A DNA stretch of 63,947 nucleotides, the filler included, from Perkinsus olseni (taxonomy: Eukaryota): NCBI GenBank assembly GCA_013115125.1. It is 5 parts of 5 records of this genome, joined end to end, with 100 filler letters (N's around TTAATTAATTAA, not from the genome) between each part and the next. Parts side by side here need not be neighbours in the genome. Positions count along the whole stretch, not along the records: positions 1 to 12,837 come from JABANN010000777.1; 4 more parts are not named here. The stretch is one strand, 5' to 3'. The notes beneath the pieces are model-generated. The model did no database searches. It was not told the origin of the DNA and saw only the letters and a list, made by a program, of their open reading frames with translations. Both the position numbers and the translations under genes were made by a program. Shown here piece by piece: positions 1 to 56,237 of this stretch (the stretch's first letter is position 1; each line of letters opens with the position of its first letter).

Positions 1-221
1 GATTGATTGAGATTGGATAATCAATTGAGATTAACCTCTCCTATATCTGGGTATTGTGTTCCCTGGATTACACACACCCAATGCAGATATCTCCTCTCGT
101 GAACTTTCTACTGCTCAGCTCAGTAGGTGGAGCGTCCTGCTACCATGAGAAAGGGTGCCGGTTTTAGTCACAGCGTCGTCACGCGTAAAAACGCGACTTA
201 AGGAGGAGTTTAGATATTGTA

Positions 222-467
222 GGTGGCCCTCAAATGAGGGCCTCAATCTAAATTATACTTGAGGCGTACTTCAGTTGCTCCTTAAGTAGTAAGGTTGTTA
301 GACAACTTGTCTCAGACAAGTAATGAAGTTACTCAAGTACCGCCGTAAGAACTTAAGGCGCCTTCAGTAAATCCAAGTTTAAGGCGCCTTGATGATGTTA
401 CTTAAGTACAGTAGTGAAATAGTTTACCTGGAAAACTTGAGGCGCTACTTGCATTTGAGGAGCACTG
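222..467. repeat. Degenerate CTTAAG/CTTGAG-rich repeat, possibly an old MITE
   Basis: Dense ACTTAAG/ACTTGAG/AAGGCGCCTT motifs. Weak terminal inverted match: GTGGCCCTCAAATG (left) vs reverse complement GTGCTCCTCAAATG (right). Confidence 0.35.
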
Positions 468-736
468 CGGCCCGCCCAAGACGTGAGTCACGTCACGTGA
501 CGCGGATCCTGTCAAGGCCCCATCTGATAGGGCCTATCAGCGTCTGCTCCACCGGGCTCCCTCGCCTGAAACTTCCAGTGGATGGCTAAGTCACCCACTA
601 GGCCATCATGGTTTGAGTGCTTCAGAAGCACTGCTGTGGAGGACTTCTGATAATCGCCTTATGTGTACGCTATCTTCTCGTGCCGACTTGTGTCCGTGTA
701 AGCTGCTGCATAATGAACAGTTCATTTTCAACAATA

Positions 737-1585
737 ATGGGCCTTCACCTTATCGCTTTCATCTCCTTCATCGTCATGGTGGCCCATGGTGGCTGCAAAA
801 ACCGCGGCACCCCAAAACCGACTACCCCCTGCCCCACATTGGTTGTGCCCACATTGGTTGGCCCCACAACGGTTGGCCTCACGACAGTCGTGGGTACCAC
901 TCTCAATCCCAGTGTCAGTTTGTACGAGCACGCTGTCAAATTCGTCTACCAGACTTCCGGTCCGAATCCTGTGCGGATAGTCTTCCTCTTCGCTGACACC
1001 GGTAACGCTATGTTCTCTGTAGAGTGTGAAACTGGATCACCGTATCAAACTAACTGGTTTGAGGCGCCCCCGGCGATAGAGGACCATCTTCGCTGGATTG
1101 CTGGAGCTAAAGCTGCCTGCCCCCAAGCTGACATCCTCTCCAGCGACTTCACCGGATTCAGAATTGACTTCCAAGGTCGAATGGCTACCCGCTTCGGTGG
1201 GAAGGAAATCTTCCTCGAGCGCGTCTGGCATTCACTCATCCCAGGAATGTATTCCTCGGAGCCAAATTCTGCATCCAAGATGCATTACAGCGTCAACATT
1301 GACGGAACCGTCGGTGTGAAGCTTGACTGCGAGGGTGGCGGTGACACCGGTTTCAAGAAGTACAAGCTCGTGGGAACGGGCATTGGTAATCCCTACAAAC
1401 TGTCAGCCATGAAGGATGGAGACACGTGGGATAACCTCATCAACGACCTCAAGGCGGTCTGTCCTGATCAAAGGAGTCGTCTTTTCCCTGGTCATGAATA
1501 CCCGACTGTGGGATTCGCAACCTCCAAAGGCATTTACGTCTTTGCGGCTGGTCGAAGCGATCGTCTTTTCAAGGAGTCTTCCTGA
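737..1585 (+). CDS. Intronless secreted hypothetical protein with Pro/Thr-rich linker (lineage-specific family)
   Basis: ATG at 737 begins a signal-peptide-like MGLHLIAFISFIVMVAHG. PTLVV/PTTVG repeats follow. Clear paralogy to the 4654-5516 gene (MHYSVNIDGTVGVKLDCEGGGDTGFKKYKLVGTGIGNPY). Confidence 0.8.
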   Translation: MGLHLIAFISFIVMVAHGGCKNRGTPKPTTPCPTLVVPTLVGPTTVGLTTVVGTTLNPSVSLYEHAVKFVYQTSGPNPVRIVFLFADTGNAMFSVECETGSPYQTNWFEAPPAIEDHLRWIAGAKAACPQADILSSDFTGFRIDFQGRMATRFGGKEIFLERVWHSLIPGMYSSEPNSASKMHYSVNIDGTVGVKLDCEGGGDTGFKKYKLVGTGIGNPYKLSAMKDGDTWDNLINDLKAVCPDQRSRLFPGHEYPTVGFATSKGIYVFAAGRSDRLFKESS

Positions 1586-2324
1586 CTCTTCTCTACTAGG
1601 TCCCGTAGCCATATATCCCGCTGGTGCCTTCTTTCCCTACTAATGAATTTTTAGACCAGGGACCCTAGCACTTCCCCGTATGCCCCTGGTGGAGTCTACG
1701 GGCAGCCTGTGCCACAGGCCCTGTGGCGCACGCTTCGTTCTCTAAATTGTTGTATTCAGTGATTTTGAATCACTGTTTTTTTACATGCATTGGGATGCAT
1801 TACGAGAAGTCGATGGTAATCATCGAAGAATCACTCCCACTCACCTGCGATTGTTGCGTTAGAGTTCTCAGTCAAACCAGCGGATTGGCGGTTGTGCGGA
1901 CACGGTCATTATCGATCTATAAGTCTTACGCTGAGACACAGCGATTCTCGTTTGAGCGGCACCGGGAAGTAGGAGTCGTTATTGCTTCTTGTCGAATCGA
2001 CGCGCTTCGGCCGAGTGTAGTAGTCGACCTTCAACAATCAGTGTACCTTGGATCAGTGGATCTTGTCGTGTCTGTCAGACACGGTGTCTACACACTGTGT
2101 AGTACACAGTCTGAGACACCGTTTCTCAGGCGTCGATCCGGCCGTACAACTTGTACGGCGATGCTTACAAGTTGTACAAGACGTACAACTGATAGTATTA
2201 CGTAACTTGTACAAGTCGATACAAGATGTACAAGCTTGTCCAGTACAAGCACTCAATATAGCATCAACGACTGCACCAGTGAATCACTGGCAGTGATTAA
2301 TAGGACTGTTTTTCTAACACTCTA

Positions 2325-2832
2325 CACCATTTCCAGACCCACTTAGTAAAACCCCAGAGCAATTTAATCGGCACGCGGGGCGCATCCGGACCGTCCCTCC
2401 TCCCGGCCCGGGGACTCCGGCCATGAGTGGCGGGAGATGCGGTAGGACGAAGTCAGAGTACCTCCTGCCGTACTGTGATATGTTGCTCCGAGAAGACGTT
2501 GAAGCAGTTACTATGCAACTTTGTATACGATGCTTCAATCACGCCCAAACATTTTACCCTCGTTGCTCAGCTATGGAAGCATGCCAGTCGGAGCCCCAAT
2601 TCGAATGTTTGAGAATTAGGCTTTAACCTGCGATCTGGAGGACACCGAGGGTTTACTTCATGACATAAAGTTCATGTAGGCTGACGTTGTGAGTTTTCGT
2701 ACTTGGTAGTGATTTCCTCGGGCTCTACTAAATTGGTCTTTCTTGAAATCAAATTGCTTTGGGGTTTTACCAATCTGGTCTGAGCCTTATTGAATTGCTC
2801 TGGGGTTTGACTAAGTAGGTCTGGAGAGGGTG
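2325..2832. mobile_element. MITE of about 508 bp, TA target-site duplication, Tc1/mariner-like non-autonomous
   Basis: Left TA|CACCATTTCCAGACCCACTTAGTAAAACCCCAGAGCAATTTAAT matches the reverse complement of the right end TA|CACCCTCTCCAGACCTACTTAGTCAAACCCCAGAGCAATTCAAT. Subterminal repeats are present. A second copy starts at 12734. Confidence 0.8.
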
Positions 2833-4653
2833 TACATAAGCTGTAGAGCGCAACATGAACCTCGACCCGTCAAAGACTGAGTCTTTAAGACTCCAACGAG
2901 ATGCTAAAGGTTGTTGCTCCTGGCCGCTCTTGTAGTCAACCAACACGTTGGTGACGTATCTCGTGGTGATGACAACGCAAGGATCAGGGTGGCCGTTCTT
3001 TCATTCTTTCATTCTTTCCTTCAGAAAGAAAGGCTATTTTTCCCCAAAGCAAAGAATGCCTATTTTTCCCCGGAAAATAGGAAAAATAGAAAAAATGGAA
3101 ATTTTGGAAAAAATTGGGGAAAAAGAGAGAAAAACTCAAGAAAAAGCGAAAAAGGAAGAGCGAGATGTGGTTGATCACTAATCAATGATTAGAGGCATAG
3201 AGATGTGCCATAGGTCTGACAGAAATATAACTGAAACATTCGGGAGATTTAAACCCTCGTAACGACGGAATCGATGGATCTCGTCGTTGGATCTTAGGCG
3301 CGCAGGAGTGTCCATCAAAGCTCGAAGCTCACGGAAAAGAGAGAAACGTGCGGCCCTTGCTCCTACTGGTGGAGTCACTTCACTGGAGTGTGAAAGACGA
3401 GTGTGGAACTTAAAGTTATCTATACCTTGCCACACAAACTCCCTGCGGGCCGGCTGCACAAGAGCGTTTCTTCAGTTGTACAAAATTTGTGGCCAGGTAA
3501 ACCTGCCAAGTTTGTAGTAGTTGTGATTGTCTCAGCAGCAGTGCTCAAGCTTTCCTTAGGGATAGCCTGTCAACGAATAATATATTTAGAGACGCCTTCC
3601 TCCGCTGGACAACCATATGGAGGTTTCACGGGACCGCTGTGAGAAGTGATTCTCACGAGCGCGTATTCAGCAGCTCATCCGGTACAGATGGTTCCGTTTC
3701 GTCGAGTCACTCAATATGAGTGCCACCGATGATTCCACGTTGAAAAAGTATACTAAATTCATAATTATTGAAGCCCTATGCCTCCAATGACTGTATCAGC
3801 AAAGATGATGATGATCATAAATGAGAGCAAAGTTTGCTCTCTTTGCTCTCATGGATCATCGAGAAGCCGTCGCCGGCCCCCGAATCCAACAGGATTCCGT
3901 GAGATACTGTCATGCACTGTCGCGCAGTTGTGTCACGCTGAGAATAGCAGCGGGAAGATTTCCGGTATGGCTCAAGTTGACTCCTCGAAATTGATGTCCT
4001 TATCAGCGAAATTGACTTCCTTAGCCATGAGCGTCTTATTCACGGAATTGATTTCCTTATTCGAGGCCTGCCGCTAAAATGACTTCTTTATCCGCCAATT
4101 GTATACCCTCATCTCGACCCTACCGCTAATTTGCTGTCTCAACGACCCGCCAACGTGAAGTCCTCGACCCCCATATAGGCAACGGCAACCTTATCCGCCA
4201 AATAGACTTCTGAATGGTATAGTCATCCTAACGAGGAAGGCTATCAATAACCAATGAAGAACATAGTTCAGGAAACAACCTGTCAGTTGGTGTATGCGCT
4301 TTCGCACTCGGTAATGACAAATACCACCAACTGGTTCTCCGAGGCTAATGCGCGTCACTCTCCCATCGAGATTATGTCCGAAACTGTATCGCCCATTTCC
4401 ATCGACACCTTGCCTGACCAACTGAACCCAACATCGCCAATTGTGATTGAGTGGCGAAACGTAACCTAGCGTGTCCTTGACGCTTCACATCAACTACTGA
4501 TTGACGAAACTGGCGTTGCAGTAAACGCGTAAGATAATTCTGGAATCGACGCAAACGTCACTGGCAGACCCTGCGCTTCTGACTCAGAAGTTCTGAGCGT
4601 AAGGAGGGGAAAATTGATTGGGATAAGTACTAATAAGAATTGACAGAAAAATA

Positions 4654-5516
4654 TTAAGAAAGTTGTCTATGAAGACTATCAGTGATAAAGTCGCCTGTAA
4701 CATAAATCACATCTTCGGTAGCAAACCCCACCCTCTGATAGTTGTCCGTGAGAAAGCTATCTTCCGAGAAACCGGGGCAAGCCATCTTGAGGCTACCAAC
4801 GAGGTCCTCCAACGTGTCTCCGTCCTCGATTGGTTTCACCTCGTAGGGATTATCAATGCCCGTGCCTACGAGTTCGTACTTCTTAAAACCGGTGTCGCCG
4901 CCACAAGCACAGCCAAGCTTCACATCAACGGTTCCGTCCATGCTGACGTTGTACTGCATCTTCACTCCAAGCTCGGATGAGTCGCCAGTGGAGTAAAAGC
5001 CCGGTGTCAGCGGCAACCAGGTGCGTTTTAGAGTAATCGGACCATCTGCGAAAAAAATCTGTACGCTGCCGCCAGCACCGGCAGATATCTCGGTGAACTC
5101 GTCGCCTGCGATGCCGGCTCTGGGGCAGGCAGCTCTTACTCGAGCAACCCGAACCTCATGCTCCGTCCACTCAGGATCACGGCCCGAGATCCTGTGGATT
5201 ACGTGCAACTCACACGGTCGGGAACTCGCAAATCTTGTTTCGGGCTTCTTGAGGGGGAACCAATTACTCTGATAAACAGTTTCACACACTACGGAAAACA
5301 TGCCCATATTAGCATGGCCAGCAAAAACTATACTAACGGGATTGGGGCCTTTCGACTCGTAAACGAATCGGCCAAGGTGGCACCTTGAAGGTGCTTGTGC
5401 GGGTAGTCATCGACCCTGGGATGAGATGCACGCTGGGGGGCGGGGCGACTCCTGCGATTACCGTAGACCAGAGGTAAGAAACGGAAGGCTGAGATGATAA
5501 GGCGGAATATCATCAT
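4654..5516 (-). pseudogene. Paralog of the 737-1585 secreted protein, with one frameshift near 5380
   Basis: The signal-peptide ORF (MMIFRLIISAFRFLPLVYG) is in a different frame from HLGRFVYESKGPNPVSIVFAGHANMGMFSVVCE, which aligns to HAVKFVYQTSGPNPVRIVFLFADTGNAMFSVECE of gene 1. No frame-restoring GT-AG intron was found. Confidence 0.65.
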
Positions 5517-6766
5517 TGGTAAATGGACAGCTACCTACGAAAGGGAACCAGTGATGGAGGGAATAACACCACGTATTGTTCATCGCATGCACAGTTCGTC
5601 TTTCAACCACGACATCTTGTGCTACTGGGACGAACACGACAGAAGCACCACCACGATACGGATAAGTGCTCGATTCACTCCTGGTCATCCTTGGGTGAGG
5701 AGATAGGCCATGGGAATCCAACCGTCGCAAAACCCGATGAGGAGTCCTCACTGAGGACGGTACCTTGCTGCAGCACAGACCTTTCCGCACGCGATTCGCG
5801 TAAAGCGGGCCCTTAGCGTGAGCTGTCCCCATTTTTTCATATTGAGTTGAGGGAGAGGGCTCGCGAGGAGCAACGCCATGTTGCCCCAAGCGATGCCACG
5901 AGATGTCTGGGTGCTGAACTCGTTGATTCCGTCGTCACTTCAAGACTGACGTTCCCTCTCAAGAAGTTTCTGCTCCAACTTTTCGAGCAGCGGCGGCGCG
6001 TGACGTGGTCGAGGCCTGGACCGGCGCCGTGTCACGGGAGGTGTGTAACGCTATAGGTGGGTATTGGGTATTGAGCACAAGGAAAGTCTGAGAGCTTTCC
6101 CGTCTGAGGTCAAGGAGGACCTTCCACCGTTTCACGCGAGCTCATCTCATGCACGGGATTATGCGTCACGCTCACCACGGCCGGGATAGCGAAGGCTAGC
6201 GCGCTCGTTGAAGGCAGCGCGTGACGGTTTGCATGTCTCGTCCCTGCGCCCGTGCAGAAGGTTTAGCTTGAGCTCAGAACTCGCAACAGCGCAACTCAAA
6301 ATGGCCCACTTTCTTTCTGGACGGAAGAAACGGAGTTAGAGCGTGATTGAACGAAACGGCGTGGACAAAGGGATCATGTATGTAAGACCCGTGGATGAAT
6401 GAGATGTGTACGAAAGAGGCTGGACAGTAACATGGACGAAACGAACGGGATGAACCCGGTCATGGCTGAAACAATCTTCGACGAAACCTACAATGTATGG
6501 AACAGCGATGCACGAATGGAGGTTCCTCGGGTTCCGTGCGATGGTCGTTTCCGTCGTTAGTGTGGGATCCACCATCTCACCAGTCGAACCATGCCGAATT
6601 TCGAGGGCTCAGTAGAAGTGCAACCTAGTAACAGGCTACAATTTGACTACAGTTTAACAGTTTACAGTCTAACTATCCAGCAACGCCACACTGGCATAGC
6701 GGTGGCGGGTCGCGCTATCTTCCGGATAACCCGGGAACGATCCTGGCAGATGACGATTGTGTGGTA

Positions 6767-7088
6767 CAGTGGCAGTACAATTCCTGGCAGTACAATTCGA
6801 AGTATGAAAATTCCGTATACCGAATAATACTGTACGAAATTCAAATCCACGAGCCAGTACTGTACGACTTGTTACTGTCCTTACTGGAAGCGTACCATGG
6901 GTTACTGCACGGATCGTTAGTGAACGGATCATCAGTGTACGGGTCATCAGTGTATGGGCTAAAACTGCACCACTGGATGCTGTACGAGTACCGACGCAAA
7001 GGTGGTGCAAGATTATAACTCACAACTGCACGTGTGGAAACTGTACGGATGAAGCCTGTACGAATGTAATTTCTACGACTTGCCACTG
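6767..7088. mobile_element. MITE-like element of about 320 bp with CAGTGGCA termini and an internal degenerate 15-bp periodic array
   Basis: GGTACAGTGGCA (6763-6774) is the reverse complement of TGCCACTGTACC (7081-7092), giving TA-flanked CAGTG ends. The interior repeats CTGTACG/GTGTACG about every 15 nt. Confidence 0.6.
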
Positions 7089-7216
7089 TACCGAACGATC
7101 CTCACCGCCGCGTTTACCTAACTCAACAAAATCAGAGCGTGAAAATAATCAGCCCTTTCGTAATACAGTCGGGTATGCTGAAAAATATTAAAATCGCCAA
7201 GCTCAACCAGAACCTT

Positions 7217-7289
7217 GCCCTGGGGTGGGATCGAACCTGAGACCTACCGATACGTGGTTGAATGCACTTCTCAACTAGACCATGGGGCC
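7217..7289 (-). pseudogene. Degenerate tRNA-like sequence (pseudo-tRNA or SINE head)
   Basis: About 72-73 nt: GGCCCCATGGTCTAGTTG (A-box-like) ... AGGTCTCAGGTTCGATCCC (B-box) ACCCCAGGGC. The T-stem and anticodon stem pair poorly, so it is not a credible functional tRNA. Confidence 0.55.
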
Positions 7290-7632
7290 TGCTGAATCCA
7301 TCTCATGTGCTTATGCTTTCTTCGTTCGACACCCAAGTTGCATTTAACAGAATAAATACTTCACAAAAAGTAAAAACAAAAGAAGTCGATTCGACTTTTC
7401 ACGAAAAATAAATCTCTTCAGGAGGGCAATAAAATTCCAGAAACACAGAATCGAAAAAATCATTTCGCGAAGAATTGAACTCAAACTAATACATGCTCCG
7501 CTCGGTTCGCTCGCTTCAGTCGAATGCTCATTGGAATCAACGATAACTTCTCAGCGCGAAGATTTCGCACCCGTGAAGTACATGAAACCCAGGCCGAAAG
7601 CGATCGGAAAAGATACGGAAAGGTGCAGTCAC

Positions 7633-10600
7633 CTACCAGTAGACCACCGCCACGATTAGGTAGGTGAGTTGAAGCATGAGGCCCTCCAACCAGTTGCTCT
7701 TTCCGTTGACCACAATCGACATCGCGATGATCACGGACAACACCTGGTGATGATGCTGCTAGAGGGCAGTGAGCAGTTGGGCTGACTTACCAGTATCACA
7801 ACTCCAAGCATGCCGAAGTCAAGGTCCATAGATACGCCCATGCACCAACCAACAATCACAGCGAAGGGCACCTGACACTCTTGCTTGACGCAAACTGCAA
7901 GAAAACTGTTAAACACCGGAGAAGATACAAAATGAATACGGAAAAGGCTCGTGAAGTGATCCGATTAGAACTAGAAGTCTCTCTTCAACTGGTTAACAAC
8001 CTCGCAGTTCATTCATCAAGGTTTGCCAACTCGCGGCACGGAGGAAAGAGGGAAACCGATTGCCCTGCATCAACTGTAGAGAAGCCGGCGAGAATCAAAA
8101 TTACGCGGTCATTTTATTGGGCAAGTTCAAAGCTCGACTGAGAAGTAGACCAAGTTGTGAGATGGGGACGATACCTGAGTGTTCACCTGGCCTGGCCTGG
8201 CCTGGCCTGGCCTGGCCAGGCGAGACCAAACACTCACAGCTCACAGAGCTGTGGTGTTTGGTAGGCTCCTACGGCGAAGGAGGCTTTGATCAGTCCACTC
8301 ACGGCGCAGTGGAATGTTGAAAGATTTCGCGAGGTTCAGTTTTCGGATGGAACTCGCGGAAGCGGCCAAGAGAATACACTCTCTCGGACTTCCTATCAAC
8401 ACGAGGGTCATCCTTGCAGCTGACTGGCGTCCGAACGGTCGAACACAGCGCACAGACGAGGTTAATGGGGTATCAAGAAATGTTTGCTGATGAAAGATTG
8501 CTTACCACAAAGAGCGCGATTTGCGTGCACGACCCCACAGCAATGCCGATCGCTATCTCCGGTTTGTCAATGATACACATCCGAATGGCCGACGCATGCT
8601 CGCACGCGTTGCCGACTATTGGTAATAATATAACACCGATGAACGAGGAAGATACAGAATAGCTCGACCTGAGTAAGATACGGAATAGCTCGACCTGCGT
8701 AAGATACGGAAAAGCTTGGCCTGAGCAAGATACGAAATGGCTCGACCTTAAGATCCGCTTCTCAAGGCGTGAACAATAACGACGCACAAAAACTTACACG
8801 ACCCCCTCGATAGATCCGACAAGATACTCGGAGTTCAACGCGACTAATAAAGTTGAAACCTGAAAACAACGACCGCTTCATTCTTTCTCAATACCACAAT
8901 TCTCGCAAATCGTCGCTGTAAGTTGTAAAACGGGAAAGGCATAATCGATCAAGATACTCACCAATAATAAAGTCAATGAGGTCGGTACGTTTATGGTCGG
9001 CTCGTCAGCATCCTCGCCACCCTCGCTCTCGAATATCGATAGGTGGGTATACCTGCGGAAGGTCCCCGGTTCGATCCCGGCATGTTGTATTTTTATCATT
9101 TACATTTGGAAGACGAGGAAGCAGATGTAGCTGAGCAGAAGGAAGATGGAAACCACTCTGGAAATCTCCAAGACGGTGCTCTGCAAATCTCCCTTCTCAA
9201 ATTGCTGTTTGAAGCCTTCCTCGAAAACCTGAGCAAAGCTATCAGCTCGCCGAGGCCTGAAGATCGGACCTTCAAGGTCCCCGGTTCGAATCCCATGGCC
9301 GGCATTTTTCGATCGAAAATCACGATGAATGATGCTGACCCCAATGAAAGTTAGGCATTGACCTGTTCTAGCGAAATCGATCGAGAGATATCTTTGAGAA
9401 TCTTACCGTTACTTGTAAATATACTGACACTAAAGATACCCATCAAAACAATTTAATATGATAATTTATTCAACACTATATGATACTTTCAATAACTAAA
9501 TTCCTATTATGAAATATTTCCGTCGTAAAAATGGTCTACCGAAATCGATCAAGAAGCATCTTCGAGAATCTTACCGTTGCTTAGAATTACACTTGATAAA
9601 AAAATGTAAATATTCCCGTCTTAAAAGTGTTCTACCCAAATCGATCGAAAGATATCTTAGAGAATCTTACCGTCGGCATCGCGAAGGCTGCGCAAGCTAG
9701 AAGTAGCATACTCATATTCGTCATCGGACCGGTCTCCTTGAATTCCTGCTCCTTGCCCAAGTGCCCAATACCGCCGAAGAAAAAGGACATACCCAGCACC
9801 TGACAGAAGAATCTTGGGTTGAAGCATGGTAATCACGGAATCACCCTGGGGATAAATTCACCGGAGTTTTATGAAGGAAAAATCGCAATTTTTCAGAAAG
9901 TTGAAAATTTTAACGTTTCCTCGACGAGATTTATATCTTCAGCGGAAAAATTCCAGGTAAATTCCCGCTGCAGGAATTTTCGCGGAATGAACACGATGCT
10001 CAACCAGCTTGATACGTACTATTACTATAATACTAAACGAAAAAAGTGACAAATTTGCAACGCTCGAAAAAAAATCCACTGTAGGTTATGAAAAACATCA
10101 ATTTATTTACGCAAAAATTTCCTCTCGATAATCGAAGCTCGCTCAGACGAGAAAATCGTAGAACTCAACTTACCAATAATAAATTGGAGAGGACAGATCC
10201 CAGCAGAGTTCCCTTCACGACCGTGACCAGACCCTTCATCAACGACTGCACCGTGAGAATCATTTCTACTGCGTTGCCAAAGGTCGCGTTCAAAAGGCCG
10301 CCCAGGGTGTCATTCCGAAGGCCAACGGCGAGCTCCTCAGTCGCATCACCTACGAAAGGAGTGGTACGAAAATTGAAAAATAAATTAATCAATTGGAATT
10401 ATCATACCAAATTTTCCGCACTTCGTGAAAAACGGAGAATTCCTGTTCACAGTGGTTGTCAAGTACTCGCTAGAGTTATTATACTATCTCAACCATCGAG
10501 GACCCGGGTTCGATCCCGGGCACTGACATTTTAAGAGATATCTTCACAAGTGACTTTCTTATGCACAGTACTTAATCGGAGTTATTACACTACTCGAATA

Positions 10601-11383
10601 ATCAAATTCCATGGGCGAGGACCCGGGTTCGATCCCCGGCATTGACATCTACCCTGCACTACTCAGTATCTTCGCAAGGGAAATTATCGTCTACAGTATT
10701 TACTAAGTCCTCGCTAAGAAGATTTCGCTATTCCAATAATCAAGATTCATGGGCAAGGACCCGAGTTCGATCCTCGGCAGCGACATTTTTCCCCACCCTT
10801 ACCCAATATCTTCGCTAGCGGTATCAAGGCAATGAAATTGGTGCCGAAGACGACCGCAGGTGACCATCCAAGCATACTTGATGCAACGCCGATCGGTGTG
10901 AAGATACAGAGTATCTTGAGGTCGAGGTAACATTTTACAAAATTCGCGAAGCGTAGCAAACAACCGGGGAGGAGACACCCCTACCGAAGACCCCCGTCGT
11001 TGAGATCGTTTCGGGACGACGAGTTTTATTCCCACGCCGATGCACTCAATATGAAATTGTTTTTACCAGCGAGTTTGATGAAATCGAGACCGGCGTGTAT
11101 GAACTGCCAGCTTCGACCTAAGATTCCTTCCCTTACGTTAACAGGGTCCAATACGATCGCCTTCAACCCTACAAAATTATTAACTTTCACTGCAGCGGGG
11201 CCACCAAGATCTGAGTAGGAAATGAAATGTCGCATATCTCTTTCTCCGCGCCGAGCATGGTTCGAGCTTGGATACTTCCAACCCCGCCCCGCGGACGGTA
11301 TCTTCCGTATAAGAAGACTCCGGAAAAAAAGAAAAAAGAGTAAAACTGAACTCAGCTAGACATATCTTTTTGACCGGTATCAT
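7633..11383 (-). CDS. CAX: Ca2+/H+ exchanger (CAX family), multi-exon; first and last exons approximate
   Basis: Spliced exons give ...[19 protein letters not shown]...[13 protein letters not shown] (alpha-1 repeat)...[21 protein letters not shown]...VFQM|YTH...[14 protein letters not shown] (alpha-2 repeat)...[21 protein letters not shown]...[15 protein letters not shown] boundaries. Confidence 0.93.
8186..8220. repeat. (CCTGG)6 microsatellite in a CAX intron
   Basis: Read directly from the sequence. Confidence 0.95.
8649..8756. repeat. 26-bp tandem repeat x4 spanning a CAX splice acceptor
   Basis: Units of AAGATACGGAATAGCTCGACCTGAGT type start at 8649, 8675, 8701 and 8727. Confidence 0.9.
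10445..10820 (+). repeat. Three degenerate units of about 120-140 bp, each carrying a tRNA T-arm, in CAX intron 10350-10802
   Basis: GGACCCGGGTTCGATCCCGGGCACTGACA, GGACCCGGGTTCGATCCCCGGCATTGACA and GGACCCGAGTTCGATCCTCGGCAGCGACA. Confidence 0.85.
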
Positions 11384-11421
11384 ATCCGTGATCTACAATA
11401 TCGAGAGAGAATACTGTAGCA

Positions 11422-11540
11422 TCTTGAGAATCTGTCTGATTGCACTGCATGCCAACGCTACAGAGAGACCCCAACTGAGAACATCGGCAAGAGTCTAACT
11501 AGCCGGAACCGCCAGCGTTGGACCATTTACTCACACACAG
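11422..11540 (+). repeat. Dispersed repeat of about 120 bp (copy 1)
   Basis: Aligns with the reverse complement of 13641-13760 (TCTTGAxAATCTGTCTGAxTGCACTGCATGCCAA...CATCGGCAAGAGTCTAACT). Confidence 0.85.
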
Positions 11541-11919
11541 AACGATCACCATAATTTCCCCAACGAGAAATGAGCATCTTGTGATAGCGGAGCGAAGTCA
11601 ATAAACTCACCCACACACATCGTCATCAATTTTGGAAAAAAATGTGCCGAAAAAGTGAGTCGTTGTTTGGAAATTTCCCCTCGCGGCCCCTGGGCATGTC
11701 GCAGAAACGGAGTACCTCGGTAGAAGGGAAACTAGGCCGGCAGCATCGGCGTTGGACTAAAAACTTTCATACTCCGATCGATTTTGTTATAAAAGGTGAA
11801 TGGGCAGTTTATTGCGATCGACAAAAAACTTTTCGACTCGCGGCCCGAAGTAAGCCCACAGGAACGAGCACATCGGTGGTGATCCAACTAAGCCGACGGA
11901 ACGGGGATGGACTAAAAAA

Positions 11920-12452
11920 ATAAACGCCCGAACTCACTGGCGCTGCTAGTCGCGGGCGCCGTTAACGGTTGCGTCAGGTCGCTGTGCTCCGAAGACGCGT
12001 AGTGGAAGAGTCTGGTTCGCCTCTGGTGGGCCGAGGCTTGGCGGAAGGACACGTTGGCCATGGTAGGAGTAGGGGGAGGTGTGGTACTGCGCAAAAGGGA
12101 ATTTAGCTCGGCATTGCCACCAGAGAATTTATGAGACACCTAAATTTTGCGATAAATTCCGGGAAACCCACTTCAGAAAATTTCTCGAAATATTACGATA
12201 GATTTACCCTCCAGTCGAAAATTTTTCTCTCGCAATACCAAAATTTCCGCAAAAAAACAACAACCACCACCGAATCAAATCATCCATGAAAACGGCAATT
12301 GCGGTTCGGCAAAATCGCCGTCCAACCAACCCTCCAACAAATCGGTGAAAATGACGAAAATTTGTTTCTCCTTTTTCGCAGTTTCGTCACCCAGGATATG
12401 CCGCTCGAGAGAGGCCTCAGGCTGCCGTGCAGTATAGGACACCTCCTTCAAC
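11920..12452 (-). CDS. Partial multi-exon hypothetical gene
   Basis: Coding-like exons LKEVSYTARQPEASLERHILGDETAKKEK and NAELNSLLRSTTPPPTPTMANVSF, separated by AT-rich intron-like DNA. No family recognised. Confidence 0.35.
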
Positions 12453-12462
12453 CTAAGATACG

Positions 12463-12686
12463 AAATCTTGCTCATCTTGCTCTCCCTCACAATTCCTCAA
12501 ATCCTCATGTCGTATGGATCCCGAGAACAATATCAAACTTCTAGCGCAATACAAATTCTTGCTCTCTTGCTTTCCCTTAGAATTCCTCAAAACCTCATGT
12601 CGTATGGATCCAGAGAACAATATCAAGCTTCTAGCGCAATACAAAATCTTGCTCATCTTGCTTTCCCTTACAATTCCTCAAATCCT
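12463..12686. repeat. 90-bp tandem repeat, about 2.5 copies
   Basis: CGTATGGATCC recurs at 12511 and 12601, and the flanking sequence is near-identical between units. Confidence 0.9.
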
Positions 12687-12733
12687 TTACTTTTATCGAA
12701 CTTTCCTTTACAGCATAGGACTAGAAGCAACTA

Positions 12734-12837
12734 CACCATTTCCAGACCTACTTAGTAAAACCCTAGACCAAATTAGTAAAACCCCAGAGCAATTTAGTCG
12801 GCTCGCGAGATCGGCATCCGGATCGTCCGGGACGATT
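12734..12837. mobile_element. Second copy (left end, cut by the contig end) of the 2325-2832 MITE
   Basis: TA|CACCATTTCCAGACCTACTTAGTAAAACCC...CAGAGCAATTTAGTCGGC. Confidence 0.8.
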
Positions 12838-12937: not shown

Positions 12938-12940
12938 AAT

Positions 12941-13307
12941 AGCGGTGGGCGGAATTGAACCCGACACCTGATTACTTCTTGGTCCAATCTCTACGGAAGG
13001 GATCGATACTCTCAAAAGCGAGTGTCGTTGCATTACTGAAACCTGATGAGTAGCAAGTAGAATTCGGAGAGGTCGATCGCAAGACAGACCTTTCTGTAAT
13101 CTCTTGGTTGTCCCTCCAGCTTCGCCATCATACGATACGTATGTGAAAGCGCTGAAGCCGCGATAACAGTAAAACGGATATTTACATCTTCCCACTAACA
13201 CGAGGGCCATGGCAAAGAGCCCCTACGGGGAATTGAACCCAAGACCGACGACACAACCACTGAGGACCACTGAAGCTGAGTAATCATCACACAAAGTGGC
13301 TGTCACG
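12941..13307 (-). repeat. Left arm of the roughly 370-bp inverted repeat bounding contig 2
   Basis: Highly similar to the reverse complement of 25402-25768. Contains two tRNA T-arm-like motifs. Confidence 0.92.
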
Positions 13308-13640
13308 AAGTATTCTAAAGAAAAGTTCGAGTGACTGCCGCCGCTCCACGTCGGAGCCGATTGGCTTACTCAATACACAGAAACCTCACTGACTATAATT
13401 CGTTAATAGCTTCACGATAAAGTAGGGGTCAATGGCAACCCCCAGCGAAGTCTCGACACTGCGTCGGAGCCGGTCGCATCGCGATTATCGCAATGGTCCT
13501 CTAGAACACGGGGTCCCAACGCCAATGTAGATCCTCCAGTCCATTCGAACCAACCTGACCTTTATAGGCGCAAGAAATCATGCACGAAATCCGTTCGGCC
13601 TCCTCGCTTTAGATCTGCCGCAAGACGAGCGATGAGCGTG

Positions 13641-13760
13641 AGTGTGTGCGTGAGTTTATAGTCCAACGCCGGTCCCGGCTTAGTTAGACTCTTGCCGATG
13701 TGCTCAGTTGAAGGCTTTCTGTAGCATTGGCATGCAGTGCAGTCAGACAGATTGTCAAGA
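13641..13760 (-). repeat. Dispersed repeat of about 120 bp (copy 2)
   Basis: Matches 11422-11540 in reverse orientation. Confidence 0.85.
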
Positions 13761-14533
13761 AGCCCTCCTCAGGGGTATAGCCAACCAGAGAAGCTTCCCT
13801 TCCTCCTAGCGATAAGCGTGAAACAACTTTTTCCACTTTCAACAGGAAATTGCTTGGAGCCCGCGCAGAACCTGTCCAATTGAGAAACCAGACGGCTGTG
13901 AGGGATTTCGGGCATTGGCAGCCCTCTCCCGGTACAAATCATCCAACCCCTATTCCGGTTTTTAGTGAGTGAACAAACGGCCGCGGAAAGGTAAACTCCC
14001 AACAAAAAAGATCCGACACGAAGAGCGAAACTGCGCCCACGTATCTTCGGAACATTCCCTCAAAAGTCGTCGAGATTCAGAGTGAATATAAAACTAGATG
14101 CTGAGAATCGATGAGCAGTCAGGAGACATCCTCCACAAGTATAACGAAAAAACCACTCTGGAACTGAAACATGAGACCCACACCGTGCGAGTCTCACATT
14201 TTTATCAACGAGTGCGTGGTGCCAACTTTTTGAAACAGATCAGATTGTCTTGCCGATCAACGTACATCTATCACACGATTCTATGCCCCAACATCTCTCG
14301 TCACATTTGAATGAACGCTTTGTCCGACGAGACTCGGCCAGGTAACACACGTCCACACGTGCCGTAGTTGCTGGAGCGATAGCGCTGAACAAAATGGAGG
14401 ACTTCGATGAACCACGCAAGGTTGTCGCTACTATCAACACGGTGTGGTGAAACATACAACTTGAACACGAATGCATGGATTGGTACATAAACTAATCATC
14501 ATTTGTTCGAAGACTGAATGAAAGAAACTAGAC

Positions 14534-16251
14534 TTACGGATCTTGCTCGGCCTCATCTCCTTTCCCCATCAGCGCTGTTTCATAACTGTCGATCAAGTGC
14601 GCATAGCCAGACTTGGGAACCATCGGACGATCAGCCCGGGCAATCTCACAGAAGAAGTCGACGAGGGAGGTCTTACCGACTGCGGGGTCCATGCCATTGG
14701 TTAAGACGGCCTTGAGAGGTTGGGACGGATCCGTGCCAATGACGTAGACCTTGCCAGGTATGACTAACGGGACGGACCATTTGTAGTCGGCTAACTGGTG
14801 ACTGGAGGACTCGCCCCAACCACCAACAAGATACTCCAAAGAATGCATACAAGTTCGACTGATAACATCACCGTCGTTGACGAAGGACCTCAAACTCAGG
14901 TTCCACGGTGAGAGGACAATCCGTCGCCATCCACGACTCTGTAGAGTATCGGATAGGACTGGCGGGGGGCCGAATGCTATCGCCTCCACCCAGACACGAG
15001 GGCTCAGCTCTGGTGCCATCAGAAGGCCCGCTATCAAGGCTACACCACCACCCAACGAATGGCCGGTGACAAGGAGACGTCCGCTGCTGCCTCCCCGCGA
15101 TAGACCCTCTCTGATGTAAGGCATAGCGCTTTTAGCGACCCAGGCAGCTCCAGCGTTGATGCCTCTGTGAACGCGGAGAGCATCGGCATTGTCACCATCA
15201 TCCTCGCCAGTATGGATCTCGACGTCATCACACAACATATCAGTGATGGCATCAGCCAAAGTAGCAGTGCCACGGATAGCGAGGACCACCGTACCATCAT
15301 AACGTAAGGCAACGAAGAACCGAGGCTTCAGAGGATCTGCACCTTCGAAGCCGCCCTCAGGCGACGTGTACAGTACCTCGCTGATATCAGCACACATTGT
15401 AAAGATACAATTCTCCGACTTCTCAGCTGCTGGCAGCCGCTCATACTCGTCACGAGTCATCCGTGCTGCTGCGGCATCACAATCGTAAGCAGCCTTGGCG
15501 TAGGAGAGGTAACTCAGGGCTGCTGTGCAATCGATGTCCACCAATTTACGACCGAACTTCCGAGGGTCCCAATCGGGGCGAAGTGGCGCTCTCGAACGAC
15601 ACATATCGACGAAGTCTGCCATCACTTCCTGTGGTCGCTTGGGCTCATCTGAACCTTCGAAGGTAGCTGCAAGTTTACCACAATCACCAATCCTTCTCCA
15701 CACCCTCTGGACCATATCAATGTTAACCTGGGCTTCACGTTGGCGCTCCTGTTCGAGAGACAACTCATCATCACATGAATCCGCACTCACAAGGGCCTCC
15801 TTACCTTCGCTCGGGCGGCTCTCTGTTTGGCATTCTCTACCACGGCCCGAGCAGATGCTCCAACTTCTTCCCACTGGCTTCGGGCGGCAGACCTCGCAGA
15901 CTCGGCGGCAACACGCGCCGCTTCTGCAGCCCGTTTCGCAGTATCCGCTGCGCGTAACGCTTGATCGATCGTTTCGGATATCGTCTCACTGAGTTGATCG
16001 GCCGCCTGTGAAATCGCTAGCCGATGCCCCGTGATGCGGCTCTCGCTCTGACGGTCGGCTAAGCCGCTGGCCCGTTGGCTGAGCTCTGATGCGCGGCGAG
16101 ATAATCGTTCGCTTTCCGATTGCAACTCTGCTGCCATCTGCTTTAGGTCATCGACTGAGCTCCTACTTCCTTTTTCTTCACAGAGAGCTCTCCTCGCGTC
16201 GAACTTCGACAAGGCCGTCAAGGCACAGGCCAAGAAGGAGAGGTCTGGCAT
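14534..16251 (-). CDS. Class 3 lipase (diacylglycerol-lipase-like) with an N-terminal coiled coil
   Basis: Motifs LAIRGT, VTGHSLGGG and FVNDGDVISR. A 56-nt GTAAGG...GAACAG intron near 15750-15805 joins ORF 15787-16251 in frame to ORF 14534-15874. Confidence 0.88.
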
Positions 16252-16923
16252 TCAGATGAACTTATCGTGACCATTGCCTTCCTGCAACTTAACACAACCC
16301 AGTACATACTACTGAAAACACCATGCTCGTGTCATGGCAATTTCCGTGATACCTTTGTGTTCCATAGTTGGCGGTAGACAGGCGCTAGTGGTAGGGTAGT
16401 AGCCATGAAGGGAGTCCACCACCACCACCACCACCAGCCCAAGGATAAGTCCCGTCCAAAGCTTACACCGTACACTCTCCTCCAGCGCCCCTAATCGGCC
16501 GTCAGTTCATCGATGCACCATCCTGACAACCACGACTGATCAGCAAGCTAGAAGGATTCCTTTTGGATGGGTGTGTGCATTCAATAAAGATACGAGTAGC
16601 CAAGATTTAGCTTCGCGATATTTCTCAGAACTGTGTTACCGCTGAGGGCCGGACACGAGAGCATGTTGGCTCTGCCAACTTGGCAGGACCCTCTTAGTGC
16701 CCCCGTAAGATAACAACGCCGGTACTTCTCCGGTCATAGGACAGGAAGGAAAAGTGGAGAAAACTCGTTTCAGTGGACGAAGATTCAGATCCGTAGTTCG
16801 ATTCCCGTATCGTACGTTTCTCCCGTATTTTTCCACTCAGCCGCACAGACTTCCTCAAACTAGGATGAAGGATTGATTTTGGATGACCCAAAGATTCCCT
16901 ATTGTATCAGTTTCTTCACATAA

Positions 16924-19900
16924 ATGATTTCGAAATCGTCAGACGAGTCCCCATCGACCTCTGAGGGATGGAGGAAGCTCGGAAATGAACAGCTCGTACG
17001 ACGAACCATCACACCTGATCCGAAGTTGCTACTCTAGCTTTCTTATTCAGGAGCGCGGTGCTATCGAGGATGCTGTTAGCAGTTATACCAACTCTATCGA
17101 GCTCAAACCGGAGGACAGCGTCGCTTGGTAATACTAGACGGTCTCTTGTCATTGAATGAACTGTTAGGGTGTGGGCATATCATAAAACGATCATTCGAAA
17201 GCACCCTTCGGACCGGCGTAGATTCGTTCTGAATCATGTGCATTCCGACGGTCTCTCCCCGGATGTCTATTGACGTTCAGGTCCAATCGTTCGGCGGCCA
17301 ATGCTTTGGCTGGCAAGCTCGAGGAAGCTTTATCTGATGCACAGCAGTGCGTTAAGTTGAGCCCCCACTGGGCCAAGGCACACTTCAGAGTTGCTAAGGC
17401 ACTGGAGGGGCTGCACAGGTACTAACTATCAGTCGTTCGTCAGCAGTACATGAGATTAGCTCAATTTTAGGTATCAGGACGCTATAGCCGAGCTTGAGGC
17501 CGCGAAGGACTCCTGCGAAGTGGTCTACGACGTCTGGTATTGTTATCGTTGATGTTGTCTCCTTCAGGATCCTGAGGGGATGTTGACAGGAGCGTTGGAA
17601 TCCTGTCGAGAGAACATGAAAAGGCAACTTTTGATAGGAAGATGGCGGGGCAAGGTTACAGAAAAGCTCGGAGGATACCAACAGGTAATGATTCAGGAGG
17701 TCCCCGGTTCGACTCCCACAGCCGACATGTGTGTAGATAATGGAGTTCTTCGATAACGGTGATATGCGCGTAGCAGTGATGGCCAAGGCACAAGATGCCG
17801 CCTACAAGCTGGACACAACTGCCGATCCGATGGTGCTGCACATAGACCTCGCACCCGATCATCCGATGAGGAAGGACGACAACTCGAATGCAGTGTCGTA
17901 ATACGTCATGGGAGTTTCGTGGCGCGTGACGTTATGGGTATCTTCAGTTACATTGTACGGTTCCCTGATGAGGATACTCTGGATATGTGCTGTCCTTATT
18001 TAACTAATGATTTGCCAAAGACCTTCGATGGCCCCGGATTTGTGAGAATGGACCGGGTAATGACATACTCGGACATTGGCAGTAGTGCAGAGGTTATCGC
18101 AGATAAACAAAGGAGAGAAGATCGATAAGAAGGATGAGCAGCGGATTGAGGCCCCTGAGTTAGAGGAGCTCAAGGGACTATCCGATCGGGACATTGTAAT
18201 AACCGGAACTCCGTGGTTCAATTCCGGCATGCGGCGTTTGGGTGACATCTATGTTATGTCAGATGCTCAAGTATGTTCGAGAATTCTGTGAAGTGTTGAA
18301 GTCGGCCGCTAAGGAGGGAGACAAAGAGTTTCAGGTGCTATTCTGGTCCGATGGTATCTCTGCCGCGCAGCATGCCGAAGGGCGTGAGGTCTAGTCCTCC
18401 CGTCATCATCTTTTTATCTCAGGTGCCGGAGGCGAAGGATGAGAAAACTCAAGAATCCAATAAGGAGATGCTGAAGATGCTCGCCATTAATGTGAAGGTA
18501 ATGCCGCCGAACGCCTCGTGGTGGTGATGATTTTGAAATGTATTCTTATTATTGATTAGGTGAATGCGTTGGAGCAAAAGTATGGTAGTGACGTTACCCA
18601 AGCAGGATTCCTATTAGCAGCTCAACAAGAAGAGAAGAGATTGGATGATCGAGAGATGGACCGAGCTGTCATGGAGTTGCGACTTAGAATGCTGCAAACT
18701 GGCATTATTAATGAGGATTACCTGAAGGAGGCCAGGGAGACACTTAAGGACCCGAGCCTGGTAATAGTTACAGTAGTAGTAGAGCTGGTAGCAAGTGTCA
18801 TGGATGAGGTCGTGACTAGCCGTGGTCGTAGTAGTAGAATTAGTGCTGCCGAACTCTAGGCATGACGATCCTCGTCAGTGGTATATCACGTGTCAGGTTA
18901 CCCCGTCACAGCTAGACGGAGCTCCTGTAGTGGTTGAGTCGGCCGCTTCTTCATCGACCGCTCGAGGAAGGTTGCAGAAGAAGTTAGATGAGCGCAATAA
19001 GTCCAGTAACGCTAGCAATGGTGATGGCAATGAGGGCAAGAGTACCCCTGAGGAGCCCAACACTGGAGGCAAGAGTAGAAGGAAGAGACGTAAGGGGGAA
19101 CAAGGGTGCATGGTCGTGGGTGAGTATGGTCATTTAGATAACCGACATGGAAAGAAGAAGGTAACTACTCCTCCAGCAGAGAAGGCCGACACTACACCAG
19201 CAGAGAAGGCCGACACTACCCCAGCAGAGAAGGCCGACACTACCCCAGCAGAGAAGGCCGACACTGCTACACCAGCGGAGACTGCTAGCAGCACTCCAGA
19301 ACCCGAGTCAGAGGGAGATGTGTGTGTAGGGAGGGAGGTGTCCCCTTCTCGTACGGATGATGTTATTATTGAGGCCGCAGCAGAGTTCACAGAGGATACT
19401 CACAACACGGAGTCCCTCGAAGGCGTCGCCCGTGAAGAGAAGAAATTGGACACTATCGAAAGTGAAGCTGCGATGGAGTACGGTAAGGAGAAAATGAAGG
19501 ATGATGTAGTGACCCCGTCTACGCATGAGAATAGAGAGGTTGAAGTAGCCGAAGCTGATGTGACACCACCGCACGGAGGGGAGGAGATACGATTCTCCTC
19601 CTTCTCTGAGGTAGACGTCCCTAGTGTTGACGAGGCAGCTGAGGAGGCCGCTGAGATGGCGGTGGAAGGACGCGATCATCCTTCTCGAGGAGGAGTTACG
19701 GAAGTTACGGTAGTGGATGCGGGCGCATCTTCTGGAATGATCCATAGACATGCGAGTGAGGAGGCCCGGAGTGAACGTCGATTGAGTAATGGAGTGCCGA
19801 TTACCCCAACTATGCTCAGTGCCGAGGCTCCAACGCCGGTAAATGATGTAGGGGAGGTCGAGTTCCCGCAGCTGCCTTTGCTGACTGAGCCTGTCGGCAG

Positions 19901-20177
19901 AGTGCCTGTCACACCGACGCTTCATACTGGTGATATTGACGGGGTCTCGGAGACGTCGGAAGTGAGCGTGGATCCGGCAACTGCGCACGGTGTGCCTCTC
20001 ACGCCCACGGAGAAGGTGTCCTATGAGGAAGAGGAGATCAGCCCATTACGACCATCATCATCATGGAGGTGGTCGAATGAGGATTTGTATTTTGGTGCTG
20101 GTCTTATCGTTGGCGGTATAGCTGTATTCGGTATCACACTGAGTCTCCTGAAGAGGTCTAATGCCGCTGGTCATTAA
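16924..20177 (+). CDS. TPR-domain protein with an acidic low-complexity region and a C-terminal transmembrane anchor
   Basis: Spliced N-terminus WRKLGNEQL|ERGAIEDAVSSYTNSIELKPEDSVAW|SNRSAANALAGKLEEALSDAQQCVKLSPHWAKAH (Sti1/HOP-type TPR). C-terminus LYFGAGLIVGGIAVFGITLSLLKR. Confidence 0.8.
19173..19277 (+). repeat. 24-bp coding tandem repeat (PAEKADTT)x4
   Basis: CCAGCAGAGAAGGCCGACACTAC repeated. Confidence 0.95.
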
Positions 20178-20849
20178 TCCTGATGATGATAATTTATATA
20201 CATCACATTTACTATTAGGATGATGATGATGATGTTTAGCACCACCGATTAATTTCCAAACAGTGTTTCTACTACTACTAGGCATGTTGCTTCTGCGTTG
20301 GAGTCGCCTGCTGATAGATGCAACACTGGTGATAGCTAACGGACAACAACAGGAGAGTAGACAACCAGCTCGGCAGCACCAGCTTCACTGTTGGTCTGCA
20401 TCGTAACATTCGAATGGCCTGCTGGTCTATAGTATGTCATCTTATTTCTACTGCAGCATTACGTGTGTTCATTACACGAACTACACGAACTTGGCTCTGG
20501 AAGCATATTTTTCGGATAATAACAATCGTTTTAGAAGGTCGGCGAGAGAGGGATTGACTGCGCATCGGGCGTGCGCTTATTTTAGTAGCGCGTGACACTC
20601 ATGGTGTGCTCGGCCGCACGTTACTCCTACTTCCTAGATCTCAATGACCGTTCTTTTACGATTGGAACGACCCCCACTGGAGAAGGGATGCGAGCTTGGA
20701 AAGGAGCGTGGTGGGGTAATAATGACTCGTGCCGGGATTGAACCTGGGCGGGGAATGGACGATATTTCAGGACGCCTCTAATTCGAGGACTACACGGCAA
20801 AAGAAGCATCACCGATCGAAACGTTCAAAAGTAGAATGGCTCCGACCTC

Positions 20850-21790
20850 TCATCAGATTTCACGTAAATCATCTCAGAAACGTTCGAAAAATAACTCGCC
20901 CGTTGAGGCAGCAGAAAACAAAGGTGATTACGATCGTCAAAGGCTTGGGGGTCGTCAATAATGGTAATACTATTCAGATGCCATTAACCAACAGAAGCCC
21001 ACATGCCCGGCGGTATTAGACGATGATGGACGGCAACATGGAAGGTAATACGATACGGCACAGTGGCGCCAGCTGGCTAAGAGCGCACATTTTTCTTGGC
21101 GGTTTGGAACACTTCCAACGAGAGTTCTTATTGGAATTGGATCTGGCAAATCTTGACTATCCTTCGTTACTGTTTGCTGATCGCGGAGGGTTGATTGATC
21201 GTGAGTCGATTGATGATTGATTCCAGTTGGGTCTTTTCTCAGCGGCCGTCTTTTCTCTGTGGATTCGACACCGGGTGGGAGAGGGGTTGTAGATGAGATT
21301 GATGATACTACGACATGCTCGGCGACTGGTGCAGCAGCTACAATTGCAGCAGATGAAAGTGGAATATCACAGGCCTTTTTTGAGGTGATATCGGCACGAT
21401 CAGTCGATTAGGTTAAGGGTTTCCGCTTCTATCCCGTAGGTCATGGGTTCTAATCTCCTTCCTGTTAGGCTCATCGTTATTCTATCAAGAATACCTTCCT
21501 TACGCTCGACTCGCCTACGAGGGACCTGCGTGCTCTCCGACGGTGTAATTCTTCGCCACAGCTCAGCCTCGACAACCACTGCGCTGCCTCGAGAGAACCA
21601 ATGGAGCGATCGGAGAGGATGAAGAAGGACTTAGTGGTGGTTCCATCTTGGGTACCGTCACTGCGTCACAGAATTCACTGAAGGGAAGTCGTTTGATGAC
21701 GATCACCATCGACTCGTTCGTCTGTAGTTTAGTTAATGATGCGCATGCGTGCGAGTATAATACCAAACTTTTGTTGAATCATGTGTACCA
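20850..21790 (-). CDS. Probable multi-exon hypothetical gene (Ser/Pro-rich)
   Basis: Coding-like exons such as LTKLQTNESMVIVIKRLPFSEFCDAVTVPKMEPPLSPS. Gene structure not resolved. Confidence 0.3.
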
Positions 21791-22099
21791 TACGGTCTGT
21801 TGTTGTCTTAACAATACCCCATCTTGCGTTTGAGTTGAGCCCCGGGAGATTCATCAGGGATATCAGGGTATTTAAATGACACCCTAAGGAGTAGGTCTTC
21901 AATAGAGACCCACCTCCAACCTCGAAGAATGCACGTGGGTGTGTGAGCAGGAATGGTAGACAACTCGTGGGCCGTTCAATAGATTCCCTCCCTGCACCGT
22001 CGCGTGCCTTACAGTATGGTCAAATCATAACATCGGTCATGTTGATGGTAGAGGAAAGTGTGGGGGGCTGTGAGTGCACTTCTTTCGAGGCTTTTTCGA

Positions 22100-23520: not shown

Positions 23521-23652
23521 TCGGCCCCGGCCCTCCTTTTCCCGCTTGTTTCTCGCGATTTCTACTGTGGTTTCTTCTCCCAACTGGGTTTTGTTAAAGT
23601 TGTCATGATAATAATAATTATCGTCTCTCGGGAGAGTTCTGTTTTTCTCGGA

Positions 23653-25768: not shown

Positions 25769-25773
25769 GCTTC

Positions 25774-38595: not shown

Positions 38596-38665
<70 letters not shown>
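38596..38665. repeat. (CTA)n microsatellite at the contig end
   Basis: Read directly from the sequence. Confidence 0.97.
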
Positions 38666-40568: not shown

Positions 40569-40637
40569 ACTAGAGAAGCAGAAACAACACACGATAACAC
40601 GTGGGGTGAACAGTAGAAAAACGTTCATCCGAAACGG

Positions 40638-56194: not shown

Positions 56195-56237
56195 ACCACT
56201 TTCAATCCAGCTGCTTGCTTTGAGTGCAGTTTGTGGA

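Follow-up and report, generated by a model that had tools for sequence, protein, structure and literature searches.

In Perkinsus olseni (a parasite of molluscs), unrelated genes carry within their introns a repeat of about 38 nt that has the layout of a tRNA gene's 3' end and seems to have settled in introns that already existed, rather than to have created them. The window analysed here is a stretch of 63,947 nt from assembly GCA_013115125.1, in which five contigs (1-12837, 12938-25773, 25874-38665, 38766-51544 and 51645-63947) are separated by N-TTAATTAATTAA-N spacers, and the copies lie mainly in a CAX gene, a TPR gene, an alpha/beta-hydrolase-like gene and a transporter gene of the MFS family. 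The reading favoured here, held at about even confidence, is that these copies are old, decayed and dispersed members of a tRNA-derived repeat which carries the 3' end of the tRNA gene only, rides passively in non-coding DNA and occasionally supplies a splice site. Four short introns are central to the argument, namely CAX-51, TPR-52, hydrolase-48 and the 75-nt intron of the transporter gene MFS-C (Table 1).

The recurrence of the motif is well beyond background, which was taken as the expected count together with 100 shuffles of the window. The B-box motif GGTTCRANNCC was seen 14 times against 1.06 expected, and none of the 100 shuffles reached 14. Merging three tandem copies and two inverted-repeat pairs reduces these sites to about 11 independent loci, while a hidden Markov model (HMM) seeded with ten copies detected 12 loci at E < 0.05. 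As a guard against circularity, a second and independent model was seeded with the five CAX copies only and searched on the other four contigs, where it matched 17696-17730, 47696-47723, 25307-25330 and 20717-20748 (E values in Table 1), the best score in 30 shuffles being E 0.098. Matches of this model at 16788 and 18214 were at chance level (E 0.29 and 0.65, respectively), and membership of the repeat family is graded. Furthermore, a B box followed by 13 nt and TTTT was found four times against 0.11 expected, one of the four (at 53000) lying outside the repeat family. Motif count, CAX-only model and the spacing of B box and T run exclude a chance origin of the recurrence.

The core shared by the copies follows the order of roughly the last third of a tRNA gene. 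In tRNA numbering, a variable-loop-like AGGTC or AGGAC leads into a 5-nt stem strand, a 7-nt loop (TTCGATC or a near variant), the second stem strand, an acceptor strand of 7 nt, position 73 and a T run from position 74. This spacing is exact in 11 of 12 copies and A73 is present in eight; a T run beginning exactly at position 74 has at least four T in four copies and reads TTT or TTATT in three more, and in one further copy it follows a 5-nt deletion. Five copies retain a T stem of 4-5 pairs, and the remaining seven one of 1-3 pairs. Identity among the copies is 65-94% over 33 nt (repeat family D9), and the family is therefore old; outside the core the flanks are unrelated. Introns for which RNA or homologues give confirmation hold nine of the 12 loci; one lies across an acceptor site and two are outside mapped introns. 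The copies are antisense to the host gene in CAX and MFS, and sense in the TPR and hydrolase genes, so their orientation has no tie to host transcription. A tRNA 3' part with a terminator-like T run is thus a fair description of the repeat, whereas a tRNA gene is not.

The clearest case is CAX-51. RNA evidence was obtained from contigs of the RNA-type runs X7, X8 and X13 (three studies), placed on contig 1 only, with the DNA run X9 for comparison; introns on contigs 2 and 4 rest on annotated proteins or homologue alignments. Eleven joints with CT..AC ends, between 7234 and 11938, occur in the RNA contigs, and splicing all 11 yields a single open CAX frame. The joint from 9049 to 9101 skips 51 nt and, with the cut moved by +3, defines an intron whose boundaries are the same in X7, X8 and X13 and whose removal joins VFQM to YTH, as the sequence-only reading had stated; the sequence is also as quoted there, with its resemblance to a tRNA 3' part and its terminator-like T run at the distance proper to a tRNA. 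The 9 and 6 nt beyond the core are unique sequence. No joint skipping 9053-9103 is seen in X9, which is not evidence of absence. The earlier suggestion that the antisense variable loop supplies the pyrimidine-CAG acceptor stands in part: the copy provides a portion of the pyrimidine stretch, whereas the CAG falls in flanking sequence without conservation among the copies. Likewise, the copies placed in CAX introns at about 9255-9308 and 10498-10790 are indeed intronic, although the true introns are larger (9229-9670 and 10350-10802).

In the CAX gene, all three independent loci place a copy within 45 nt of a splice site. The third tandem copy in intron 10350-10802, antisense to the gene, is 12 nt from the 5' splice site; the T stems of the three tandem units have 4, 5 and 5 pairs, and a compensatory stem change from G-C to A-T distinguishes copy 3 from copy 2. 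At the 3' end of the gene, the last exon (7200-7236) opens within the T-loop motif of a weak copy and encodes only FDPTPGQGSG and the stop codon (after a W at the junction); the repeat copy at 7227 may have been recruited as an acceptor together with a terminal coding exon.

The motif also recurs, as had been claimed, in the introns of three unrelated genes on other contigs, and these are confirmed by annotated proteins or homologues. TPR-52 is absent from the annotated P. olseni protein P0057 in an exon-by-exon mapping, an exon of the gene being 100% identical to a P. olseni protein, and the junction between GGYQQ and IMEFF is uninterrupted in all three covering proteins, including P. chesapeaki P0060. 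A scan of metagenome contigs for orthologous TPR loci returned one unrelated match at 27% identity, one of the two patterns used having spanned the intron junction. The 16 codons of hydrolase-48 are missing from both homologues that reach the C-terminus, and the 25 codons of the MFS-C intron from all six Perkinsus homologues. These two introns are in frame and free of stops, and are therefore readable as coding sequence without homologues. A further copy, in the TPR intron 18196-18262, is an addition to the loci listed by the sequence-only reading.

Paralogues of two host genes provide controls for the age of the introns. Hydrolase gene 1, the neighbouring paralogue of gene 2 (cross-matches of 26-57% identity), carries its own intron at the shared position, in the same phase and at the codon after the conserved GHSF/VHFF, and this intron is without the repeat. 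MFS-B, an old paralogue of MFS-C whose exons match a different P. marinus protein, similarly has an intron at the same codon and phase, which gives no HMM match. Because the positions in MFS-C and hydrolase gene 2 are shared with element-free paralogue introns, the intron is older than the element in two of the four short cases, and at least these two introns, judged from their positions, were not created by the element. The proposal that tRNA fragments act as an intron-forming source is to that extent not supported.

Under the favoured reading of a passive tRNA-derived repeat, the copies would have spread as the 3' part of a tRNA-like unit that RNA polymerase III (Pol III) transcribes. The simplest route would be 5'-truncated retrocopies of a primary transcript that still bore its U tail, in the manner of short interspersed elements (SINEs); such copies would have inserted into intergenic DNA and into introns already present, would be neutral at these sites, and the spliceosome would sometimes use bases inside them. 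Intron sizes in these genes are 46-75 nt, so tiny that one copy can fill most of an intron; Zhang et al. (2011; PMC3101222) give Perkinsus introns as 39-1622 bp and mostly <100 bp, which fits the sizes here. The repeat resembles tRNA-derived SINEs (including simple, nearly tRNA-only ones) in its Pol III tRNA-like origin, in a B box that is the best-kept part, in the occurrence of both orientations in introns and intergenic DNA, and in old, diverged copies. It differs in that it comprises the 3' third only, without an A box or the 5' tRNA part, and in ending with A73 and oligo-T as a tRNA gene does, whereas SINEs have a body with a LINE-like or A-rich tail; at about 38 nt, it is also far below the usual SINE length, and neither duplications nor a partner element were seen in the window. 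Of a SINE-type head with A and B boxes, the B box alone was seen: the A-box pattern shows no enrichment (5 seen and 3.34 expected, with 22 of 100 shuffles reaching 5) and none of its occurrences adjoins a copy.

Several observations weigh against this passive origin. The window showed neither a master copy of full length nor a partner retroelement or reverse transcriptase (Pfam, 11 largest open reading frames). Random truncation predicts ragged 5' ends, which are not seen here, most copies starting at the variable loop. A minimal intron that received 38 nt should reach about 90 nt, but the length of CAX-51, TPR-52 and hydrolase-48 is that of ordinary minimal introns; insertion therefore requires a matching loss of older intron sequence. 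Target-site duplications at intron ends do not exceed background in the 64 kb of sequence and old copies to which this test and that for a SINE tail applied, the best being 7/12 at TPR-52 against up to 6/12 in element-free introns of the same genes; the candidate duplication AGgTAATG / AGaTAATG at TPR-52 was rejected since element-free introns score similarly. Finally, the three tandem units are 28-31/35 (80-89%) identical and gapless over a 35-nt core and 60-63% identical, with 20-40 gap columns, over the remainder, a contrast that may be exaggerated because the flank alignment is near the level of poorly alignable AT-rich DNA. The better-kept core hints at constraint rather than neutrality, and would fit a selected B box or hairpin.

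Such selection is the substance of one alternative, considered unlikely here, in which the cores are kept as B-box elements, either for binding of the transcription factor TFIIIC (as at extra-TFIIIC sites) or for the start or termination of a short Pol III transcript, and introns are simply tolerated sites. That introns host B boxes, as the sequence-only reading put it, is literally true, and the copies may have a B-box function. The B box is exact in nine of the 12 loci and differs in the other three solely by G to A at its first base, while T stems are often broken; the T run at the distance found in tRNAs, the tandem cores with their one compensatory stem change and an orientation independent of the host gene point the same way. 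Nevertheless, B-box conservation among the dispersed copies is partly an artefact because the copies were found by a B-box search, an A box is lacking, the contrast between tandem core and flanks is subject to the caveat already given, and the folding of host introns is ordinary (z from -1.23 to +1.36 against shuffled sequence). Occupancy by TFIIIC is what defines the extra-TFIIIC sites of yeasts and mammals, which have a B box only. The copies resemble them as isolated B boxes without an A box, away from tRNA genes; they differ in that a T run and the remainder of a tRNA 3' end accompany the B box, a combination that speaks for descent from a gene end rather than for a bare binding site.

A second alternative, likewise improbable in our assessment, is that fragments from the 3' ends of tRNA genes, acting as a minimal mobile element or taken up as filler in break repair, enter exons and there make new introns of about 50 nt, CAX-51 and TPR-52 being such gains. 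These two are the best copies, are of minimal length and consist of repeat to about 82%, which is awkward for insertion into an older intron; the proximity of the copies to splice sites in the CAX gene agrees with this view, as do three junctions (the donors of 25305-25352 and 47651-47725 and the acceptor of 7237-7636) at which bases within a copy act as splice sites. Against it stand the paralogue comparisons, in which the position predates the element in both short cases compared, the unique sequence flanking the core of CAX-51, flanking direct repeats no stronger than in element-free introns, the divergence of the copies, which speaks for no recent burst, and at least two copies outside mapped introns. 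An intron-less form was also not seen in the DNA run X9, though contigs cannot show absence.

Filler DNA or captured cDNA at repaired breaks is a known model of intron gain in Daphnia, under which introns should end in short direct repeats and be polymorphic for presence or absence. A non-autonomous fragment that lies between unique flanks in a minimal intron would be accounted for in this way; however, direct repeats are not seen at the intron ends, nor is polymorphism in the X9 contigs, subject to the same limit. Introners (of Micromonas, Aureococcus, fungi, Amoebophrya and other dinoflagellates) are comparable in that the repeat occurs in introns of unrelated genes, at times filling the intron, and in that the Perkinsus lineage is sister to the dinoflagellates. 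They differ in that the copies here have no shared splice-signal ends or terminal repeats, have low identity, lie in part outside introns and in two cases occupy older host introns. A single element with defined ends that bears both splice sites is not what was found: offset and orientation differ from case to case, no common ends carrying GT or AG exist among the copies, and flanks beyond the core are unrelated; nor are the host introns of MFS-C and hydrolase gene 2 gains when compared with MFS-B and gene 1. The occurrence of intron-generating elements in the dinoflagellate relatives (PMC7789003, PMC9860276) favours the intron-forming alternative, but in Amoebophrya the intron ends bear inverted repeats of 8-20 nt and direct repeats of 3-5 nt (PMC7789003), neither of which is present in the Perkinsus copies. 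A more radical version, more doubtful still, would have fragments of pre-tRNA 3' ends with their U tail recurrently pasted into genes, building or rebuilding minimal introns; CAX-51 and TPR-52 would be such events, the cases at old positions would be replacements of the intron interior, and a Pol III product would regularly supply the material of Pol II introns.

That the loci are whole tRNA genes or pseudogenes, or match a short motif by chance, is very improbable: ARAGORN with its threshold at 80% makes 57 calls, mostly noise, among which several copies appear as ends of tRNA-sized objects, and the 7227 motif has an A-box-like word 44 nt upstream, but ARAGORN at default settings finds 0 tRNAs in the whole window, Rfam scans (whole window, 9000-10850 and 7180-7340) give no tRNA match, the place expected for a tRNA 5' half at CAX-51 is occupied by a conserved CAX coding exon, and chance is ruled out by the counts, model and spacing given above. 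In Rfam, the T-arm/acceptor end alone aligns, at 10616-10650, through the tRNA-like end of the tmRNA model (15.5 bits). A full-length tRNA at 7227-7300, suggested by this A-box-like word at the spacing of a tRNA, was rejected for want of a covariance-model match; also rejected were retroviral primer-binding sites and tRNA genes of permuted or split form, as the T run directly follows the 3' half and there is no TGG/CCA complement.

Table 1. Repeat copies, their host introns and the element-free paralogue introns in the window.
Feature	Position	Strand	E value	Remarks
CAX-51 intron	9053-9103	-	5e-9 (nhmmer)	42 of 51 nt are repeat (9055-9096), antisense to gene; A73 then TTTTT; RNA joints in X7, X8 and X13
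Copy in CAX intron 9229-9670 (442 nt, RNA-confirmed)	9272-9311	+		Antisense to gene; about 43 nt from 3' splice site
Three tandem units in CAX intron 10350-10802 (453 nt, RNA-confirmed)	10495-10791	+		Cores 10495-10533, 10613-10651 and 10751-10791
Weak sense copy at CAX intron 7237-7636	7227-7249	-	0.031	T-stem position holds 3' splice site of the intron
TPR-52 intron	17685-17736	+	1.2e-5 (CAX-only model)	Copy 17692-17734, sense; 43 of 52 nt are repeat
TPR intron, 67 nt	18196-18262	+	0.65 (CAX-only model)	Weak copy 18203-18240; exon mapping; B box exact
Hydrolase gene 2 intron (hydrolase-48), 48 nt	25305-25352	+	0.026	Sense copy from donor; GT at variable-loop/T-stem position; 5-nt deletion in acceptor part
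MFS-C intron, 75 nt	47651-47725	-	0.0016	Antisense copy 47692-47727 at donor; donor GTAGGAG is antisense of acceptor-strand position
Copy outside mapped introns	20717-20749	-	0.054 (CAX-only model)	About 540 nt downstream of TPR stop codon
Possible copy, divergent intergenic region	16784-16822	+	7e-4 (other-seed model); 0.29 (CAX-only model)	About 100 nt upstream of TPR start codon
Control: hydrolase gene 1 intron, 50 nt	23395-23444	+		Without repeat; same codon and phase as 25305-25352
Control: MFS-B intron, 588 nt	42591-43178	-		Without repeat; same codon and phase as 47651-47725; no HMM match

Other features of the CAX gene and of contig 1 were recorded alongside the repeat. The introns 9229-9670 and 10350-10802 hold tandem copies of their own exon/5' splice-site junction: the former has 66-nt units at 9344-9409, 9512-9577 and 9608-9673, each ending in ...CTTACCGT, and the units of the latter repeat the exon-end word ...ATATCTTCGC. 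Tandem duplication spanning the donor seems to have lengthened both introns, the outermost donor being in use. The exon after the intron begins with GT for nine of the 11 RNA-confirmed CAX introns (7237-11937), and for about three of the nine TPR introns with resolved boundaries. RNA contigs of X7 and X8 starting at 9280/9281 were considered as a lariat end and dropped; DNA contigs break at the same motifs, and this was taken as an assembly effect. CAX intron 11211-11937 contains an 82-nt repeat with sharp ends at 11419-11501, of which an inverted copy lies at 13681-13763 on contig 2; its depth is very high in all four runs, with loose ends at 11418/11434 and 11500/11501. It is a separate high-copy short interspersed element, distinct from the tRNA-tail repeat, and its presence in a CAX intron indicates that introns here collect repeats. 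The X9 contig depth of 1,600-7,800 at 2141-2996, 3853-4280 and 12413-12837, against a background of about 40-200, marks more high-copy repeats on contig 1.

On contig 2, the region 22100-25420 holds two tandem alpha/beta-hydrolase-like paralogues, which the library representative P0068 fuses into one protein of 485 aa. The ends of this contig form a 417-nt inverted repeat (12938-13354 and 25355-25773, 90% identical) spanning, in two paralogous genes, the last exon (ending RDSH(F/V)V and stop) and some 360 nt of the 3' flank, with two GGTTCAATTCC motifs inside; since the contig breaks within it, this sequence is probably repeated elsewhere. Contig 4 (38766-51544) carries three MFS transporter paralogues, A at the contig start, B at 42290-46430 and C at 47200-49110. 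Blocks of A and C are 75-96% alike, and close to the contig edge A bears, at the position where C has its copy, a T-arm-like word (38780-38800). A subtilase open reading frame elsewhere in the window has its top matches from Perkinsus.

A search of the literature on Perkinsus introns, genome and transposable elements, on introners, on intron gain from SINEs or tRNA-derived sequence and on B-box introns found no description of such a repeat. The main texts of the introner surveys PMC9860276 and PMC12130899 do not contain 'Perkinsus', 'tRNA' or 'SINE'. If the pattern holds genome-wide, thousands of tRNA-tail copies would be present in P. olseni introns, and they would provide a compact and recognisable marker for dating intron turnover in a lineage beside the dinoflagellates, in which intron-generating elements are active. 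For annotation, the in-frame copies of 48 and 75 nt risk being misread as coding. Furthermore, the repeat offers a test of whether very short introns can be overwritten at a fixed position, and its copies are candidate B-box sites within Pol II genes of an alveolate.

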